A stretch of DNA of 11,609 nucleotides from a virus (taxonomy: Duplodnaviria > Heunggongvirae > Uroviricota > Caudoviricetes). The notes under the pieces were generated by a model. It saw nothing but the letters and a program-made list of their open reading frames with translations. It was not told the origin of the DNA and did no database searches. Location of the stretch: positions 1 to 11,609 of the IMG/VR virus record IMGVR_UViG_2802429218_000006; one strand, given 5' to 3'. Each line of letters opens with the position of its first letter. The stretch's first letter is position 1. A program made the position numbers and the translations under genes. This document shows positions 175-11,468 of this stretch, piece after piece.

Positions 175-1362
175 ATGGCTCTAACCGATATACAGATCAA
201 ACGTGCAAAACCACAAGACAAACCATACACATTGAACGATGGACAAGGTCTGTCATTGCTTATCAATCCCGATGGCTCGAAAGGCTGGCGTTTCCGTTTC
301 CGGTTTGCAGGGAAAGCGCGGTTAATGTCATTTGGCAGCTACGATTTAGTAAGCCTTGCAGAAGCACGTGAGAAGCGTGACGTCGCCCGTAAGCAGGTTG
401 CGAATGGCATTGATCCTGTAGAGGAACGCAAAGCTTCAAGACTCGCTCAAAAGCTATCAACAGAAAATTCTTTCGAAGCCATATGTCGAGAATGGCATAC
501 CAACAGAGCTGACCGCTGGACAGTGGCCTATCGAGAAGAAATCATTAAGACATTCGAGCAAGATGTGTTCCCGTTCATTGGTAAACGCCCTATCAGTGAA
601 ATCAAACCATTGGAACTGCTTGAGGTATTGCGACGAATAGAGAAGCGTGGCGCATTAGAGAAGACAAGAAAAGTACGTCAAAGATGCGGTGAGGTATTTC
701 GTTATGCAATCGTAACTGGCCGAGCTGATTACAATCCAGCACCTGATTTAGCTATCGCGCTGGCCGTACCCAAGCAAAAACATTATCCGTTCTTATCCGC
801 AGAAGAGTTACCTCATTTTATTCGAGATCTGGAGGCATATACCGGCAGTATCATTACTAAAAATGCTACAAAGATAGTTATGCTAACTGGTGTTCGAACA
901 AAAGAGATGCGCTTTGCTACATGGGATGAGATTGACCTTGAGAAGGGGATATGGGAAATCCCAGCCGAAAGGATGAAAATGCGCAGACCTCACATAGTGC
1001 CGCTTTCTACTCAGGTAATCGACCTTTTCAAGCAACTCAAGCCGATTACTGGTCACTACCCTTATATTTTTATTGGCAGGAACAACCGTAGTAAACCGAT
1101 CTCAAAAGAAAGTGTGTCACAGGTAATTGAGTTACTAGGTTACAAAGGACGTGCTACCGGTCACGGTTTTAGACATACAATGTCGACAATTTTACATGAA
1201 CAGGGATTTGATAGTGCTTGGATTGAAATTCAGTTAGCCCATGTAGATAAAAATAGTATTCGAGGTACTTATAATCATGCTCAATATCTTGATAATCGGA
1301 GAAATATGATGCAGTGGTATGCGCAGCATATATATGGAAAAGTTATACAAGAGTCTAAATAA
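175..1362 (+). CDS. int: P4-family tyrosine integrase
   Basis: 395-aa ORF with an N-terminal arm-binding-like region, then a catalytic core showing box I Arg (LTGVRTKE), HGFRH (His-x-x-Arg) and a C-terminal Tyr (IRGTYNHAQY). Sits immediately next to the selC-derived att core. Confidence 0.9.
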   Translation: MALTDIQIKRAKPQDKPYTLNDGQGLSLLINPDGSKGWRFRFRFAGKARLMSFGSYDLVSLAEAREKRDVARKQVANGIDPVEERKASRLAQKLSTENSFEAICREWHTNRADRWTVAYREEIIKTFEQDVFPFIGKRPISEIKPLELLEVLRRIEKRGALEKTRKVRQRCGEVFRYAIVTGRADYNPAPDLAIALAVPKQKHYPFLSAEELPHFIRDLEAYTGSIITKNATKIVMLTGVRTKEMRFATWDEIDLEKGIWEIPAERMKMRRPHIVPLSTQVIDLFKQLKPITGHYPYIFIGRNNRSKPISKESVSQVIELLGYKGRATGHGFRHTMSTILHEQGFDSAWIEIQLAHVDKNSIRGTYNHAQYLDNRRNMMQWYAQHIYGKVIQESK

Positions 1363-1402: not shown

Positions 1403-3058
1403 ATGATTAGTGCAAAAAACATTCTTTTCAGCAGTCGACATACTGATGCTGATGTAACTTTACATATCAATAATGTTATAAGATACCCCAAAAAATATAT
1501 GAATAATCATATCTATATATTAGATATAGACATGTATATTCAGACTGAAGACATGAAAAATCAAGCATATATAGATAATGACATTAGAAGCCCCCTGAAA
1601 ATGCTATTTATTGGAGAGGAACTAACAGAGTCAACTTTATTTGACTTATTATCCCAATCAGAAATATCGCTTCATGAAGTTAAGGTTAAATATGAATTTG
1701 ATTATATCTGTCAGATGTCAGAAGATGGATATAGATACATCAACAATAAATTAGAAACAGTCGCTTCATTATCTTTACTTAGAGCTATTAAGGATTTTGG
1801 TGTAAACTACAATATTATAAGAAACAAATCCTTTCTAAAAAAATATTCAGACAAGATATTCTCTACGTTATTACTAGATAACACTTTCAGTTCTTATGCC
1901 TTTGAAAATGGCTATAAATATTTTAATGTCGATGATGGTGCCGTTTACCAATTACAGCCCCCAACAAAATTTATTATTTATGACGAAGAAAAACAGCCGT
2001 ATAAACTTAAGATGGAGAGTCTGTTAAATATTAATATACCTATTCATGCACTAATTGGTAAGAATGGTAGCGGGAAAACCTATTTAATTAATAAAATAAT
2101 CAAACAATCTATTTCAACTGACCTAGAAATAAGATCTTCTGGCGCAGTTTTTAGTCGAATGATAGTTTTATCAAATACAATAAATGATAAGTGCTATAGA
2201 CCGGCAAATATAACCAAAAACAAATTCAAGTTAAATAACTATCATTTTGTATCGTTAACATCAGAAAAATATTATAATAAGCTTTTCCCACGAGGGAAAA
2301 AGCTAACTCTATTTTCTTTATTAGAAAAAATACAGAAACGAGATTCTAATAAGCGAGGTAACTTTGAACAGGGGGATTTGCTTGATAGAGTTACTCAAGA
2401 TATTATTCCCGAGTTTTCTTTTTCCATTAAAACAAATCTTGGGGAGCATATTTACAATAGTTTTTTAGAGTTAACTAGACAATATGGATTAGTTAATTTA
2501 AACTCAAACTTAGACTTAATTACGAGTTCAGAAATCGAATATGCATTACCTGATGAAGATATCCATTTCTATAAAAATAATGAACCCTTTACCTTAAGCT
2601 CAGGGCAATTATCTTTTTTAGTTAGCATGTTTTCTCTAATCTCAACAATAGAGAGTAATAGTCTTATACTTATAGAGGAACCAGAAAATTTTTTACACCC
2701 AAGTTTATTAACACATTTTATAAACTCACTAACACACATTCTAAGAGATACTAATTCTATCGCAATTATGGCCACCCACTCTGCTTTGGTACTTAGAGAA
2801 ATCCCTTCAGCACAAATAACAATCCTACATAGAAGAGACAATATCACCAACTATAAAACACCGAATATTGAAACATTTGGTGCCGATACTCATCAAATAA
2901 TGATAGACGTTTTTGGTGATTTATACTCTAATGCGATATTTAGAGAAGAGCTATCAAACATTGCAAAAAACAAAACAATCGATGAATTATTAGTGCAGTA
3001 TGGTGATTTACCTTCTGATGTATTAAATAAAATCATCATGGAGAAAAATTCAAAGTGA
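1403..3058 (+). CDS. ABC-type (SMC-head-like) ATPase with a ~200-aa N-terminal extension of unknown function; first gene of the candidate defence cassette
   Basis: Walker A GKNGSGKT (aa 219-226, nt 2057-2080); ABC signature LSSGQ (aa 398-402); Walker B LILIEEPENFLHP (aa 421-433, nt 2663-); H-loop ATHS (aa 457-460). Shine-Dalgarno AGGA lies 7 nt upstream of the ATG. Strongly AT-rich codon usage unlike the backbone. Confidence 0.85.
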   Translation: MISAKNILFSSRHTDADVTLHINNVIRYPKKYMNNHIYILDIDMYIQTEDMKNQAYIDNDIRSPLKMLFIGEELTESTLFDLLSQSEISLHEVKVKYEFDYICQMSEDGYRYINNKLETVASLSLLRAIKDFGVNYNIIRNKSFLKKYSDKIFSTLLLDNTFSSYAFENGYKYFNVDDGAVYQLQPPTKFIIYDEEKQPYKLKMESLLNINIPIHALIGKNGSGKTYLINKIIKQSISTDLEIRSSGAVFSRMIVLSNTINDKCYRPANITKNKFKLNNYHFVSLTSEKYYNKLFPRGKKLTLFSLLEKIQKRDSNKRGNFEQGDLLDRVTQDIIPEFSFSIKTNLGEHIYNSFLELTRQYGLVNLNSNLDLITSSEIEYALPDEDIHFYKNNEPFTLSSGQLSFLVSMFSLISTIESNSLILIEEPENFLHPSLLTHFINSLTHILRDTNSIAIMATHSALVLREIPSAQITILHRRDNITNYKTPNIETFGADTHQIMIDVFGDLYSNAIFREELSNIAKNKTIDELLVQYGDLPSDVLNKIIMEKNSK

Positions 3059-3954
3059 GAATTTTATCTAAGCCAGAGGGTATTGATGATCTACTTAATA
3101 ATATAGATCTTAACTCATCTATTGATGCCTTTTTATCGCTCGATGAACCGACTGGAATTGCTGACTTAAGAAATAAAAAAAATGATCTCTTGAACGAAAT
3201 TGAGAATTATCACACTGAGATGATTGAACGAGGTCATTTATCACATAACACGAGAAAAAACTTCTCAAAATATAAATCCATACTTGAGTGGATTTATTAT
3301 CACCCAAGTCAGCGAAGAAAAACAGACTACATAAACTCGATACGAAAACTTTACGCCCAAAGTGGAACTCTATGTCCTTACTGTGGGGTTTCTCCTTGCA
3401 GGACATTAGACCATTACTACAACAAAGCTTTATTACCACAGTTTTCATTTCTTCCTGAAAACCTTATTCCGTGCTGTGGTGATTGTAATAGAGACAAGGG
3501 AGCAAAAAAAGCCTTTAGCAAATGGAGAAGATTTGTCAATCCATTCTATGATGATTTCTCATCGTTAGAAAAAAATGAACCTCTCATATATATAATTTTC
3601 AAAGAAAGACCAAGATCTAGAATTGACATGGAATATGTAATGACAGCCAATCATAATCTAGACTTTTTAATAAGAAAACAAATAAACTATCACATTAGAA
3701 CAGTAAGAATCCCTTTCTATCATCATGAAGCCATAAGCAATTCATTTTGGAGAAACGCGAAAGACCTAATAAAGTTTAAAAAATTAGTCACTGACGGTGA
3801 TATAGATAATACAATTTATGATAAAATCATTGATGGTTTCATAGGCAAAAACAATGCTATGAATTATGACTGGGAATATATTATTAGATATTCATTAGTC
3901 AAACTTCGTATTAATCACTGGATTTATAACAGCAACCTACCAAAATTAATGTAG
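3055..3954 (+). CDS. HNH endonuclease-domain protein; second gene of the candidate defence cassette
   Basis: Zinc-finger HNH core CPYCG..LDHYY..N..CCGDCNRDKG (aa 107-148, nt 3373-3498) flanked by ~100-aa N-terminal and ~150-aa C-terminal regions of unknown function. GTG start at 3055 overlaps the TGA stop of the ATPase (GTGA), indicating translational coupling. Same AT-rich composition as the ATPase gene. Confidence 0.85.
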   Translation: MRILSKPEGIDDLLNNIDLNSSIDAFLSLDEPTGIADLRNKKNDLLNEIENYHTEMIERGHLSHNTRKNFSKYKSILEWIYYHPSQRRKTDYINSIRKLYAQSGTLCPYCGVSPCRTLDHYYNKALLPQFSFLPENLIPCCGDCNRDKGAKKAFSKWRRFVNPFYDDFSSLEKNEPLIYIIFKERPRSRIDMEYVMTANHNLDFLIRKQINYHIRTVRIPFYHHEAISNSFWRNAKDLIKFKKLVTDGDIDNTIYDKIIDGFIGKNNAMNYDWEYIIRYSLVKLRINHWIYNSNLPKLM

Positions 3955-4327: not shown

Positions 4328-4900
4328 TTACACAGACTGACATGATGCCAGTTGCGCACTTTTACGCGAAAAAATCATGTTCTGCGCAGGGGTGAATTTT
4401 TCACGGCTGTCATCCACCGAAGCCGCGTCAGGCCTGAATCCGATGGTCGTTAAAATGTCGCTATCCTGTGCGGAATAATTAATTTTTTCACCCTTTGCAA
4501 GCCAGGACAGAAGGGCTTCACGCAGGGCATCTGTGGCACGCTGTATGGCACAGTTTCGGGCAATGGCCGTCAGCTCACTGTAGCCCATCAGCTCCGGTGC
4601 CAGTGCCGCCGCCAGTGCTGTGCCGTGCTGCTGCATAAAATCATTCAGCCGGTCGCGGATGCTGATGTGCTGAACGGCTTCATGCGAACGAATATAACGA
4701 CCGGCGGCCTGATTCACCTGCCATTTTCTGACTTCGATAATATTGCGTAATTCGTCCAGGCGACTGACGTTTCTGCCTTCCCCGGACAGAAGCCGCAGAT
4801 ATTCCTGTTCGGCCGCAGCCAGCTCATTTTTGCGTTGCAGCCATGCTGCTTTGTTATTCTGACAGGTGTCAAAGGCCTGCTGTAAGGCTGTGCTTTCCAT
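4328..4900 (-). CDS. psu: Polarity suppression protein Psu (capsid decoration / Rho antagonist)
   Basis: 190-aa ORF, the same length as P4 Psu, in the P4 position as last gene of the sid-delta-psu operon next to cos. N-terminus MESTALQQAFDT... matches my recollection of P4 Psu. Confidence 0.85.
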   Translation of the reverse strand: MESTALQQAFDTCQNNKAAWLQRKNELAAAEQEYLRLLSGEGRNVSRLDELRNIIEVRKWQVNQAAGRYIRSHEAVQHISIRDRLNDFMQQHGTALAAALAPELMGYSELTAIARNCAIQRATDALREALLSWLAKGEKINYSAQDSDILTTIGFRPDAASVDDSREKFTPAQNMIFSRKSAQLASCQSV

Positions 4901-6756: not shown

Positions 6757-7023
6757 ATGCAAGCTGTTTTTTCTTCCCCGTCTCCTGCCCCTGTGACGCC
6801 ACTGATGCCGCTGCCGGACATCACGCAGGAGCGTTTTTTACGTCTGCCGGAAGTGATGCACCTGTGCGGCCTGTCACGCTCGACCATCTACGAACTCATC
6901 CGTAAGGGGGAATTTCCGCCGCAGGTGAGTCTTGGCGGTAAAAATGTGGCCTGGCTGCACTCTGAAGTCACCGCATGGATGGCCGGGCGCATTGCCGGAC
7001 GCAAACGGGGGTACGACGCATGA
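6757..7023 (+). CDS. vis: Vis / AlpA-family helix-turn-helix regulator (excision and late-gene control)
   Basis: 88 aa (the size of P4 orf88/vis) with an AlpA-like HTH segment ([28 protein letters not shown]). GAGG Shine-Dalgarno 8 nt upstream. First gene of the plus-strand left operon. Confidence 0.75.
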
Positions 7024-7574
7024 TGATGCCTGTTCTGCAAAAACTCCCTTTTTCTGGCTTGCCTTTTTCCGGCATTTGCGGATATAGTTTTTCCGCTGTC
7101 GCAAAATCGGCAGCCGGGCGTAGGAACCCGAGTTACTTCAAGGCGACATATGACGCGCCATGCGTCTTTTTTTACGTCGTTGCTTCGGCACACCTGTTTT
7201 TCTGGCTGTGGTTTTTAAACCGTAGCCTCTGTCAGATAATGGTGGTCCGGGCGGGGCAGCCTTCGGGCTGGCCGGTTTCCTTGAAGGCCGGTATTCCTAC
7301 CCCCGTCCGGGCTACCACCCATGAGCGTAGGAACTCCAGTGGTAGCTGTAACTGTTACTTCAAGGAGGCTGCCATCATGGCTACAACCCTTACCCCCTCA
7401 CACCCTGAATTTGTCTTTGTGTTTGCGGCTGTCCGTCGCGCAGACCGTCATCCCCGTATCTGCATGCTTCGCACCGTCGCCGGTGATGAACGCAGCGCCC
7501 GCCGTTCCCTTGTCCGTGACTATGTGCTCTCCCTTGCTGCCCGTCTGCCGGTGGTGGAGGTGTCCCGTGCGTAA
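6975..7574 (+). CDS. Possible eta-like ORF (199 codons) that reads through the immunity-RNA region, with the kil-like ORF nested in the same frame
   Basis: A 600-nt open frame starting inside vis, upstream of the PLE-like promoter, and spanning the structured RNA region. Consistent with the nested kil/eta arrangement described for P4, but the protein is low-complexity and could be an artefact of GC-rich sequence. Confidence 0.3.
7059..7088 (+). promoter_or_regulatory. Candidate sigma-70 promoter (PLE-like) driving the immunity / left operon
   Basis: TTGCCT (7059-7064), 18-bp spacer, TATAGT (7083-7088), about 30 bp upstream of seqA. Confidence 0.45.
7118..7143 (+). promoter_or_regulatory. seqA-like target site for the immunity RNA
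   Basis: GCGTAGGAAC..TTACTTCAAGG. The two blocks are complementary to CCTTGAAG (7279-7286) and TTCCTAC (7294-7300) inside the structured RNA. Confidence 0.55.
7241..7320 (+). ncRNA. cI: CI-like immunity RNA (P4-type antisense RNA carrying seqB); boundaries approximate
   Basis: Highly structured segment: GGTGGTCCGGGCGGGG pairs with CCCCGTCCGGGCTACCACC (one G-T wobble and a 3-nt bulge), plus an internal CAGCC-TTCG-GGCTG hairpin. The internal seqB blocks are complementary to both flanking seqA and seqC. Confidence 0.5.
7325..7365 (+). promoter_or_regulatory. seqC-like target site overlapping the ribosome-binding site of the kil-like ORF
   Basis: GCGTAGGAAC (7325-7334) and TTACTTCAAGG (7355-7365) repeat the two seqA blocks. 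The second block runs straight into the AGGAGG Shine-Dalgarno of the ORF starting at 7377. Confidence 0.55.
7377..7574 (+). CDS. Small kil-like protein (65 aa); resembles the Ash/Icd-like small proteins of P4-type prophages
   Basis: Strong AGGAGG Shine-Dalgarno 8 nt upstream of the ATG. First ORF after the immunity RNA. Sequence [25 protein letters not shown]... Confidence 0.55.
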
Positions 7575-7854
7575 TAAAAAAGCCCCTCAGACCGTCTCAG
7601 CGCGTCATGACGCCCGTGAACACCTCAGCATTGAGGCTTACCATAAGCTCAACCGCGCCAGCGCCGTATCCCAGTTTGTTGGGGGTGATTTGATTCACCG
7701 TGAACTCTCCGGCCTGCATCAGCTCTACATTCCGCATATTTTCAGTTACCTGAATGAAGATATTGATTTTGTGCTGAATGAACTGAAAGCCAAAGGCCTG
7801 TGCCGCGATTTTCTCGCCCAGCAGAAAGACCGGGGAGACAGGACGCATGTTTGA
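7567..7854 (+). CDS. Epsilon-sized small protein (95 aa) with a GTG start; position and size match P4 epsilon, the derepression protein
   Basis: No in-frame ATG exists. The GTG at 7567 is preceded by GGAGG at 6-nt spacing and overlaps the stop of the kil-like ORF. Product length is exactly 95 aa. Identification is by synteny and size only. Confidence 0.45.
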
Positions 7855-8308
7855 TTTTCCCCAGCCCGGTGAGATTTACCGTTCTGCCGGTTTTCCCGAT
7901 GTGGCCGTGGTCGGCATTCTGGAAGACGGTATTCCGTGGGAAATGCCGTACCGCTGCCCGGACATTGTCTGGAACCCGTACCGCCGTAAATTCAGTATCC
8001 TTGTGCGTATCCTCGCTGACGGGCGCACCACAGACATCCCGCTGGGGCGTTTTCTGCGGGAATTTACCTGTGACCGTCCTGACCTGTTCAAACGCAGCCC
8101 CGTAAACCGGCATGCGGTACTGAAAGAAATGGCCGGAGACCCGGAATTACAGAAATGGCGGGAGAAATATCTGGATATTTACCCGCAGGACCCTGTTCCG
8201 GTCAGCCGGGCGGCACCGGTGGCGCGGGAATGGCGGGAAATTCCCCGCACGGAGCCTGACCCGGCCCCCCCCCCCCGGATAACAGTTACCGCAATTATCT
8301 GTAATTAA
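7847..8308 (+). CDS. Hypothetical protein, orf151-like by position (153 aa); contains a C12 homopolymer near its 3' end
   Basis: ATG overlaps the stop of the preceding ORF (ATGTTTGA). The C12 run at 8265-8276 encodes the PAPPP segment of the product. Confidence 0.6.
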
Positions 8309-8439
8309 AAAACGACACCCGAAAAATTAAATGTGCGTATTCGCGCAGGGATACGCACGTCTTCAGGAGACGCAGATATGTCTTATCAGTTAATGCAACC
8401 GGCACGGAATGCAGTCATCTGTCACAGGGAGGAAAGCAA

Positions 8440-8760
8440 ATGAAAACACCCTTACCGCCCGTCTTACGCGCTGCCCTTTACCGTCGCGCTGTCGCCTGTG
8501 CCTGGCTGACCGTGTGCGAACGTCAGCACCGCTACCCGCATCTCACCCTTGAGTCACTGGAGGCGGCCATCGCCGCTGAGCTGGAAGGCTTTTATCTGCG
8601 CCAGCACGGTGAGGAAAAAGGGCGCCAGATAGCCTGTGCCCTGCTGGAAGATTTAATGGAATCCGGCCCCCTGAAGGCCGCGCCGTCGCTGTCCTTTCTC
8701 GGGCTGGTTGTGATGGATGAACTCTGTGCCCGTCACATAAAAGCGCCGGTACTGCACTGA
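8440..8760 (+). CDS. cnr: cnr-sized protein (106 aa); copy-number-control candidate
   Basis: GGGAGG Shine-Dalgarno. 106 aa equals P4 cnr (orf106), and it lies immediately upstream of alpha as in P4. Identification is by synteny and size only. Confidence 0.5.
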
Positions 8761-8774
8761 AGGAGAACAACACC

Positions 8775-11108
8775 ATGAAAATGAACGTAACCGCCACCGT
8801 CAGCCATGCGCTCGGCCACTGGCCGCGTATTCTCCCGGCGCTGGGGATTCAGGTGCTGAAAAACCGTCATCAGCCCTGTCCGGTCTGTGGCGGGAGTGAC
8901 CGCTTCCGTTTTGATGACAGGGAGGGGCGCGGCACCTGGTACTGCAATCAGTGTGGTGCCGGTGACGGCCTGAAACTGGTTGAAAAGGTGTTTGGTGTTT
9001 CCCCGTCCGACGCGGCCGCAAAGGTGGCTGCCGTGACCGGCAGTCTGCCACCGGCTGACCCGGCAGTGACGGCTGCCGCCGGTGCTGAAACAGACGCTGC
9101 CCGGAAGAACGCCGCCGCACTGGCACAAACCCTGATGGCGAAAACCTGTCCCGGAACCGGTAACGCCTACCTGACCCGCAAGGGCTTTCCCGGCCGGGAA
9201 TGCCGGATGCTGACCGGCACACACAGAGCCGGTGGCGTGAGCTGGCGCGCCGGTGACCTTGTGGTGCCACTGTATGACGACAGCGGCGAACTGGTTAACC
9301 TTCAGTTAATCAGTGCTGACGGCCGTAAGCGCACCCTGAAAGGCGGACAGGTCAGGGGCACCTGTCACACCTTTGAAGGACAGAATCAGGCCGGAAAACG
9401 TCTGTGGATAGCGGAGGGATACGCGACCGCACTTACCGTGCATCACCTGACCGGTGAAACGGTGATGGTGGCGCTTTCTTCCGTGAATCTCCTTTCTCTG
9501 GCCAGCCTTGCCCGGCAGAAGCATCCGGCCTGTCAGATTGTCCTTGCCGCAGACCGTGACCTCAGCGGTGACGGCCAGAAAAAAGCCGCCGCAGCCGCAG
9601 ATGCGTGTGAAGGTGTTGTTGCCCTGCCGCCGGTCTTCGGTGACTGGAATGATGCCTTCACGCAGTACGGCGGGGAAGCCACCCGTAAGGCCATTTATGA
9701 TGCCATCCGGCCACCGGCTGAAAGCCCGTTCGACACCATGAGCGAAGCGGAGTTTTCCGCCATGAGTACCAGCGAAAAGGCCATGCGTATCTATGAGCAT
9801 TACGGCGAGGCGCTCGCGGTCGATGCCAACGGCCAGCTTCTGTCCCGTTATGAAAATGGTGTCTGGAAGGTGCTGCCACCACAGGACTTTGCCCGGGATG
9901 TGGCCGGGCTGTTTCAGCGGCTGCGTGCGCCGTTCTCCTCCGGGAAGGTGGCCTCCGTGGTGGACACCCTGAAGCTGATTATTCCGCAGCAGGAAGCCCC
10001 CTCCCGCCGCCTGATTGGCTTTCGTAACGGCGTGCTCGACACGCAGAACGGCACGTTCCACCCGCACAGTCCGTCACACTGGATGCGCACCCTGTGCGAT
10101 GTGGATTTCACCCCGCCGGTGGAAGGGGAAACGCTGGAAACCCACGCCCCCGCGTTCTGGCGCTGGCTTGACCGTGCCGCCGGTGGCCGTGCGGAAAAAC
10201 GCGACGTGATTCTGGCCGCACTGTTTATGGTGCTGGCAAACCGCTACGACTGGCAGCTCTTTCTGGAGGTGACCGGTCCCGGCGGCAGCGGCAAAAGTAT
10301 CATGGCCGAAATAGCCACCCTGCTGGCCGGGGAGGATAACGCCACGTCGGCCACCATCGAGACGCTGGAATCCCCGCGTGAACGTGCCGCGTTAACTGGC
10401 TTCTCACTGATACGCCTGCCGGACCAGGAAAAATGGAGCGGCGACGGTGCCGGACTCAAGGCCATCACCGGCGGCGATGCGGTGTCCGTTGACCCGAAAT
10501 ACCGGGATGCATACTCCACGCATATCCCGGCGGTAATTCTGGCCGTGAACAATAACCCGATGCGCTTCACCGACCGCAGCGGCGGCGTGTCACGCCGGCG
10601 GGTGATTATTCACTTCCCGGAACAGATAGCCCCGCAGGAGCGCGACCCGCAGCTTAAGGACAAAATCACCCGCGAGCTGGCGGTCATCGTGCGTCACCTG
10701 ATGCAGAAGTTCAGCGACCCGATGCTCGCCCGGTCACTGCTTCAGTCCCAGCAGAACTCAGACGAGGCACTGAACATCAAACGGGATGCCGACCCGACGT
10801 TTGATTTTATCGGCTATCTGGAAACCCTGCCGCAGACCAGCGGCATGTATATGGGGAACGCCAGTATCATCCCGCGTAATTACCGTAAATACCTCTATCA
10901 CGCCTATCTGGCCTACATGGAGGCAAACGGCTACCGGAATGTACTCAGTCTGAAAATGTTCGGGCTGGGGCTGCCGGTGATGCTGAAGGAATACGGACTG
11001 AATTACGAGAAGCGCCATACCAAACAGGGGATACAGACCAACCTGACGCTGAAAGAGGAAAGCTACGGCGACTGGCTGCCAAAATGTGACGACCCTGCAA
11101 CAACCTGA
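8775..11108 (+). CDS. alpha: Alpha primase-helicase replication protein
   Basis: 777 aa (the P4 alpha length). N-terminal zinc-ribbon primase motif CPVCGGSDRFRFDD..WYCNQCG, a TOPRIM-like region, and a C-terminal helicase Walker A GPGGSGKS. AGGAG Shine-Dalgarno upstream. Confidence 0.92.
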   Translation: MKMNVTATVSHALGHWPRILPALGIQVLKNRHQPCPVCGGSDRFRFDDREGRGTWYCNQCGAGDGLKLVEKVFGVSPSDAAAKVAAVTGSLPPADPAVTAAAGAETDAARKNAAALAQTLMAKTCPGTGNAYLTRKGFPGRECRMLTGTHRAGGVSWRAGDLVVPLYDDSGELVNLQLISADGRKRTLKGGQVRGTCHTFEGQNQAGKRLWIAEGYATALTVHHLTGETVMVALSSVNLLSLASLARQKHPACQIVLAADRDLSGDGQKKAAAAADACEGVVALPPVFGDWNDAFTQYGGEATRKAIYDAIRPPAESPFDTMSEAEFSAMSTSEKAMRIYEHYGEALAVDANGQLLSRYENGVWKVLPPQDFARDVAGLFQRLRAPFSSGKVASVVDTLKLIIPQQEAPSRRLIGFRNGVLDTQNGTFHPHSPSHWMRTLCDVDFTPPVEGETLETHAPAFWRWLDRAAGGRAEKRDVILAALFMVLANRYDWQLFLEVTGPGGSGKSIMAEIATLLAGEDNATSATIETLESPRERAALTGFSLIRLPDQEKWSGDGAGLKAITGGDAVSVDPKYRDAYSTHIPAVILAVNNNPMRFTDRSGGVSRRRVIIHFPEQIAPQERDPQLKDKITRELAVIVRHLMQKFSDPMLARSLLQSQQNSDEALNIKRDADPTFDFIGYLETLPQTSGMYMGNASIIPRNYRKYLYHAYLAYMEANGYRNVLSLKMFGLGLPVMLKEYGLNYEKRHTKQGIQTNLTLKEESYGDWLPKCDDPATT

Positions 11109-11166: not shown

Positions 11167-11468
11167 AGGTGAACAATCCACTGTTCACCCTTCACCGTAT
11201 ATTCACTCGTTATCACACTGAAATTAAAAGAGAAAAACGAAAGGTGAACAGTGTGAACAATCAAATCAAAAAAAACTTTTTTTCTCCCTGTGTGATTTCA
11301 GTACGGGGGATTAATCACCGGTATGAGTCACACCGGCAGAATGCCGGAGGTGAAGAATCGAATGTTCACCCTTCACCCATTATTCACTACCTATCATACT
11401 GAAATAAAAGGAGAAAAAAGAAAGGTGAACAGTGTGAACAGTTCTTTCGAAAAAAAATTTTTTTCCTG
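11167..11468. repeat. crr (cis replication region): two ~121-bp direct repeats (11167-11287 and 11348-11468, period 181 bp), each carrying TGTTCACC / GGTGAACA iterons and ending in an A8/T8 tract
   Basis: The repeats align along their whole length with a few substitutions. Iterons at 11168-11175, 11182-11189 and 11243-11250, plus the equivalent positions in the second copy. Confidence 0.8.

Follow-up and report, generated by a model that had tools for sequence, protein, structure and literature searches.

A poly-C tract at the 3' end of orf151 in a P4-like satellite prophage of Escherichia coli is probably a recently formed, hypermutable homopolymer and not an evolved switch

Results

The window, by which we mean the whole 11,609-nt stretch of DNA analyzed here, is a P4-like satellite prophage of E. 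coli (Table 1). It carries integrase, psu, delta, sid, alpA, epsilon and alpha in conserved order, as expected from the component set of P4-like phage satellites (PMC8628076), and it matches P4 (X51522) in gene order and, at 97%, in sequence from psu to alpha. Pfam matches were obtained for Psu, Ogr_Delta, Phage_AlpA, Derepression and primase domains, and sid was assigned by alignment to P4 and by position. In the closest complete genomes the element adjoins tRNA-Sec, where it is integrated. The genes psu, delta, ORF88/alpA, ORF106/cnr and alpha have the lengths they have in P4, and epsilon encodes 95 aa in identical loci; because the P4 genes that were checked have kept their lengths, the element is not generally decayed.

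Table 1. Features of the window, with coordinates counted from its first nucleotide.
Feature	Position	Strand	Description
integrase	175-1362		395 aa, homologue of annotated tyrosine recombinases
psu, delta, sid	psu 4328-4900	-	
alpA	6757-7023		
isrK	7095-7172	+	Rfam, 70.5 bits
C4 antisense RNA (P4 CI immunity RNA)	7235-7322	+	Rfam, 86.1 bits
epsilon	ends 7854		Pfam Derepression
orf151 homologue	7847-8308	+	153 aa in the C12 frame; residues 1-111 predicted fold, remainder predicted disordered tail
poly-C tract	8265-8276	+	encodes A(P)PPP, codons 140-143 of the orf151 homologue; C10-C13 in otherwise identical elements
out-of-frame DNSYRNYL coding sequence with TAA stop (8302-8304)	8278-8304	+	read only with C10 or C13, the ancestral frame
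TAA stop of the C11 frame	8280-8282	+	144-aa product ending in APPPG; commonest state in the clone
TAA stop of the C12 frame	8306-8308	+	the window's frame; from the window sequence and ORF list
ORF106/cnr	8440-8760		DUF5375
alpha primase	8775-11108		

Several other parts of the element deserve mention. Between integrase and psu (1403-3954, plus strand), a location known as a defence hotspot of P4-like satellites, lies a two-gene candidate anti-phage system carried as cargo, which consists of a 551-aa AAA_21/AAA_15 ATPase (PADLOC PDC-M01A, E=1.5e-48; PtuA of Septu, E=1e-36) and an overlapping 299-aa HNH-type nuclease (PDC-M01B, E=7e-27). The hotspot region of another element (IMG/VR UViG 2698536560_000011) holds an intergenic C11 run between a 435-aa cargo gene and psu (L030:5579-5589), and long C runs may arise repeatedly in P4-like elements. 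The segment between isrK and the C4 RNA (7173-7233) aligns neither with the closest complete genomes nor with P4, a divergence that suggests a different immunity specificity. Relative to BS15R-A, the closest complete genome, the only indel in the right half of the element other than that at the tract described below is a single base in an A/T-rich run at 11268-11283 (plus strand), which reads AAAAAAAAC in the window and AAAAAATAAC in BS15R-A.

The open reading frame at 7847-8308 is located between epsilon and ORF106/cnr, upstream of the alpha primase, in the same order as in X51522, and homology places its product in phrog_10748 (E=5e-93 over residues 1-141). Its first 138 residues are those of the commonest E. 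coli version of the protein, and the usual orf151 product has 151 aa. Orf151 matched no Pfam or PADLOC family, phrog_10748 is a PHROG without known function, and a fold search returned weak Tudor/SH3-like matches only; a search of the full-text literature found nothing on orf151, and a survey of P4-like satellites makes no mention of it. Homologues from Kluyvera, Citrobacter, Salmonella, Klebsiella, Edwardsiella, Hafnia, Serratia and Yersinia, with 40-74% overall identity, vary freely over residues 112-143 and end in PDNSYRxYL, a motif in which Y147 and L151 are the same in every aligned homologue and D144 and Y150 in nearly all. In an AlphaFold2 model computed from 25 sequences, pLDDT is 80-93 for residues 1 to 110 or 111 and below 50 for residues 112-151, with a short terminal helix at 147-150, and on this model residues 112-151 are presumably disordered.

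Near the 3' end of this gene, 12 consecutive C residues bordered by GG on both sides form the sole homopolymer longer than 8 nt across the window. Matches to a run of ten C occur three times in the window, where 0.03 would be expected, and in 200 dinucleotide-preserving shuffles that number was never reached; the homopolymer is longer than chance would give for the local composition, a property of repeat-mediated phase-variable (contingency) loci. Rfam searches and promoter and terminator scans revealed no conserved RNA family, promoter or terminator-like signal at the tract. A sequence-only reading of this DNA had singled out the run at 8265-8276, correctly placed inside the 3' end of a 153-aa ORF, as a slippage hotspot in which gain or loss of one C would alter the C-terminus and which could be either a phase-variable switch or a sequencing or assembly error, and had proposed that tract length be compared among related elements.

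Of 5,426 complete E. coli genomes, 979 gave matches to a 181-nt query that covered the tract. Among the matches listed, the full-length ones span 179 nt against the 181 nt of the window, with a best identity of 96.7%. Where the window has C12, P4 and these complete genomes carry, between identical flanks, a non-repetitive 10-nt site of the form AAAYCACCCC, which reads AAACCACCCC, as in P4 itself, or AAATCACCCC, rarely AAATCACACC; the window differs from the 10-mer by four A-to-C changes and two extra bases in otherwise identical sequence. The same three 10-mers were recovered by a gapped pattern scan in 75 IMG/VR and 3 GTDB loci and are also present in 101 of 102 metagenome loci, the remaining one of which has AAATCCCCCC. 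No long C run was found among these 75 IMG/VR, 3 GTDB and 102 metagenome loci, and the poly-C allele was absent from the 5,426 complete E. coli genomes, from IMG/VR and from the JGI/ENA metagenome collection. A long-standing variable tract in relatives was ruled out, since relatives carry the non-repeat 10-mer at this position.

Two further observations concern these matches. The length differences seen in matches from O103 and O26 strains are due to a downstream intergenic poly-A run and not to the tract site: between orf151 and cnr, at 8322-8326 (plus strand), the window and P4 have A5, E. coli O103 RM8385 has A8, and O26 RM10386 has A9 with an IS66-family element shortly after. The exact E. 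coli P4-like orf151 site is also found in 4-5 kb contigs of three GTDB metagenome-assembled genomes from unrelated phyla (L002-L004, labeled Clostridiales, Ferruginibacter and 'bacterium'), most likely through binning contamination.

The C12 allele itself recurs beyond the window. An exact look-up of the 153-aa protein returned at least nine contigs, including three SRA runs from at least two projects and GCA_036246365.1, and the contigs from SRR12025993, ERR4228991, ERR4228993 and GCA_036246365.1 carry C12 in DNA that is 100% identical to the window over 1.7-6.5 kb. The suspicion of a one-off artefact, raised by the databases that lack the run, was ruled out by this identical C12 DNA in independent assemblies. 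The error explanation offered by the sequence-only reading thus fails for the tract as such, with the same C12 in at least nine contigs and several runs, and survives to the extent that a one-base miscall in a single assembly is possible.

Exact-product look-ups by tract length identified C10 in 14 contigs, C11 in 17, C12 in five and C13 in one, counts that overstate the number of independent observations insofar as some NCBI and Logan contigs possibly derive from the same isolates. The same look-ups found none of the products that the window's gene would give with a tract of C8, C9 or C14-C18, and contig DNA confirmed pure C runs in the length variants. Sequencing runs with the other lengths include SRR22834413 (C10), DRR634225 and SRR12721279 (C11) and SRR17839107 (C13). 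Carriers of C11 (L089-L095), C10 (L097-L098) and C13 (L107-L108) have no mismatches to the window over up to 11,609 nt, and C10, C11 and C13 carriers compared with each other have zero or one mismatch over 18.4 kb, including about 1.2 kb and about 5.7 kb of chromosome. The tract is the only variable site seen within one E. coli clone, with C11 as the mode, and it is polymorphic among closely related strains, as contingency loci are. Comparison of tract length among related elements therefore bears out the proposed slippage hotspot, as identical elements differ only in having C10, C11, C12 or C13. More diverged P4-like backbones (L099-L106, 98.5-99.7% identity) carry C10, the only length found there.

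All carriers found are short-read assemblies, and because an Illumina consensus may miscount runs of 10-13 C by one base, some of the C10-C13 spread could be of technical origin. C10, C11 and C13 are all found among NCBI assemblies whose AA/AB accession prefixes are similar; if these assemblies share a pipeline, as they may, an effect of the pipeline would be unlikely. A control for such errors is provided by shorter runs at the same site, which were found by seeking in-frame intermediates with the same N-terminus through exact-product look-ups and then reading them as DNA. This approach recovered a C6 allele, AAATCCCCCC (EIPP), in 140 contigs, a C7 allele, AAACCCCCCC (ETPP), in 14-23 contigs, and a C8 allele, AACCCCCCCC (EPPP), in 3-6 contigs; the C9 intermediate, ACCCCCCCCC (DPPP), was not found by exact-product look-up. 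Exact look-ups of versions one base longer or shorter returned none for C6, C7 and C8, and for two C4 alleles with at least 1000 contigs each they returned one-base variants in only two single short Logan contigs. By this C4-C8 control, one-base technical errors at the site must be rare as long as the run is short, and instability appears only at about 10 C.

The intermediates also indicate how the run was formed. The C7 and C8 alleles lie on an identical 2.5-kb haplotype, so the step from C7 to C8 took one A-to-C substitution at the run's 5' edge. Throughout the series C4, C6/C7, C8 and C10 the 10-nt length and the reading frame are kept, and length varies only from C10 up. Given that in-frame C6, C7, C8 and C10 alleles exist, the run grew by base substitutions and then began slipping. 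The C10 haplotypes mostly cluster, two of them lying nearer to ancestral-allele haplotypes, and the presence of C10 on several backgrounds is compatible both with one origin followed by recombination and with repeated origins. Two other sources for the run were considered and rejected. A diversity-generating retroelement came into question because all four changes are A-to-C; Pfam searches detected no reverse transcriptase among the ten largest ORFs, poly-C can be made from an A/C string only through A-to-C changes, and tract length also changes. A junction left by dC/dG-tailing cloning was ruled out, since intermediates exist and the sequence on either side of the run is collinear with relatives.

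The consequences for the protein were derived by translating the gene in silico with every tract length from 6 to 19. As anticipated from the sequence alone, one C more or less changes the C-terminus: the product acquires one of three alternative ends, and the conserved motif is kept only in the frame of C10 and C13, which give 151-aa and 152-aa products, respectively, with PDNSYRxYL behind a polyproline stretch. The C11 frame yields a truncated product, and in the C12 frame of the window the motif is replaced by 10 other residues, leaving a protein that lacks the PDNSYRxYL ending of the family; the window copy may be called motif-off, as a label for its sequence only. The stops of all frames fall within 35 nt and the start of cnr lies 131 nt beyond, and no effect on downstream genes is predicted. 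Since homologues vary over residues 112-143 and keep PDNSYRxYL, and since the tail is predicted to be disordered, the four residues encoded by the tract belong to a tolerant linker that immediately precedes a conserved C-terminal peptide. The folded N-terminal domain would always be made, and the C-terminal peptide alone would be toggled.

Frameshifts unrelated to the repeat are also present in E. coli orf151. Versions P0036, P0037, P0041 and P0043, the last of which represents 28 member sequences, have a non-repeat frameshift farther upstream, near residues 110-122, and share one alternative tail in a product of 152 aa. The conserved Orf151 C-terminus has been lost by more than one route, and these frameshifts suggest that constraint on orf151 is relaxed in some prophages.

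Discussion

We consider it likely that the tract is a real, recently formed and hypermutable homopolymer and that it did not evolve as a switch. Simple-sequence repeats can be born when substitutions turn bases adjacent to a run into the base of the run until a length threshold is reached, after which slippage takes over. At this locus, substitutions that keep the 10-nt length and the frame converted the ancestral AAAYCACCCC, with codons E-T/I-T-P, into a pure C run, the length of which became unstable at about 10 C, giving C10-C13 in one E. coli clone. The length changes would occur by slipped-strand mispairing during replication, and the earlier base changes may stem from dislocation mutagenesis, in which the strands misalign transiently at the run's edge. 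The toggling of the C-terminus most likely follows incidentally from mutation bias acting on a tolerant linker.

The tract could instead be an evolved contingency locus, that is, a selected and reversible switch by which Orf151 would carry its C-terminal interaction motif with C10 or C13 and lack it with C11 or C12, in which case satellite behaviour would diversify within a clone. Length variation within a clone, in all three frames, is what such a switch would produce, the toggled peptide is conserved over long distances and hence probably functional, and extension of the run proceeded, in part at least, independently in the T-allele (C6) and C-allele (C7, C8) backgrounds. We nevertheless regard a selected switch as improbable, since the tract arose recently, occurs in a minor lineage only, is situated at the 3' end and is most commonly out of frame, and since non-repeat frameshifts of orf151 also circulate. 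P4 and the great majority of relatives lack the tract, which is neither kept across the lineage nor placed in a promoter or at the 5' end, where it could switch the gene on and off; inactivating tracts are found preferentially at the 5' end of genes (PMC2831843). The length distribution, with C11 the commonest, resembles drift around a mode, and the four upstream-frameshifted versions of orf151 (P0036 and its relatives) weigh in the same direction. On the sequences at hand, an incidental mutable tract would fit better than an evolved switch.

We think it quite unlikely that the run is absent from the organism or that its length differences are homopolymer calling errors. Such an artefact would account for a poly-C allele that is missing from all of the complete E. 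coli genomes, from IMG/VR and from the JGI/ENA metagenomes and is carried solely by short-read assemblies, in which runs of 10-13 G or C are hard to call exactly. It would not account for the recurrence of the same allele in dozens of contigs that differ in project, assembler and metagenome, or for its presence on diverged backbones, nor for the in-frame C6, C7 and C8 intermediates. Calling errors are further contradicted by the three lengths among NCBI assemblies of similar prefix, by the near absence of one-base variants in more than 2000 contigs with shorter runs at the site, and by a range of four lengths, which is wider than one-base stutter.

Least probable of all, to the point that we give it very little weight, is an action of the tract through RNA or translation instead of DNA slippage, whether by RNA polymerase slippage, by a ribosome stall at the PPP or PPPP that the run creates (three consecutive prolines being an EF-P-dependent stall motif), or by the loading of Rho, of which poly(C) is a classical activator, on the C-rich stretch ahead of the 131-nt untranslated gap upstream of cnr and alpha; P4 does encode the Rho antagonist Psu, which could be argued to favor the Rho variant, but the tract coincides with no conserved RNA family or terminator-like site, and most relatives lack it, so that it cannot be core regulation of the left operon.

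A recently formed mutable tract that is incidental to the element, the reading we prefer, has several practical consequences. For annotation, the 153-aa product of the window should be regarded as a frameshift variant of the 151-aa protein and not as a distinct protein, and tract length at this site is unsuitable as a stable marker. At this locus, all stages through which a mutable homopolymer grows can be found side by side as alleles of a single mobile element, and the locus contains its own control, in that instability is seen only at about 10 C. It also singles out the C-terminal peptide of P4 Orf151, which is conserved and unstudied, as the segment whose loss is sampled, and this peptide offers a simple handle on what Orf151 does.

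Among the closest known counterparts is ORF151 of P4 itself (X51522, CAA35900.1; phrog_10748), which is the same gene in the same place with near-identical DNA around the site; P4 has AAACCACCCC and a 151-aa product, unlike the window, where C12 gives a frameshifted 153-aa product without the conserved tail. The tract resembles the contingency loci of Campylobacter, Neisseria, Haemophilus and Bordetella in that a G/C run of about 10-13 nt varies in length between near-identical strains and shifts the reading frame by doing so. It differs from them in its E. coli host and satellite prophage carrier, in its location at the extreme 3' end, where the last 8-14 residues change, in its recent origin and absence from most relatives, and in that its length differences are known from consensus assemblies alone. 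Homopolymeric contingency loci are, to our knowledge, uncommon in E. coli. In Bordetella, homopolymeric tracts polymorphic among clonal isolates are described for clonal Bordetella pertussis (PMC1891110).

The poly(A) tract at the 5' end of Listeria monocytogenes inlA is likewise a homopolymer inside a coding gene with frequent frameshifts, which arise about 1000-fold above the point-mutation frequency (PMC2831843). The inlA tract, by its 5' position, gives an 8-aa product and a true on/off state (PMC2831843), unlike orf151, in which the folded domain would always be made and the C-terminal peptide alone toggled. With respect to the birth of simple-sequence repeats by substitution, the allele series C4, C6/C7, C8 and C10, followed by C10-C13, fits the expected course. 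Compared with that general concept, whose mutational mechanism is a putative one here, the locus is distinguished by stages that coexist as alleles of one mobile element in one bacterial species.
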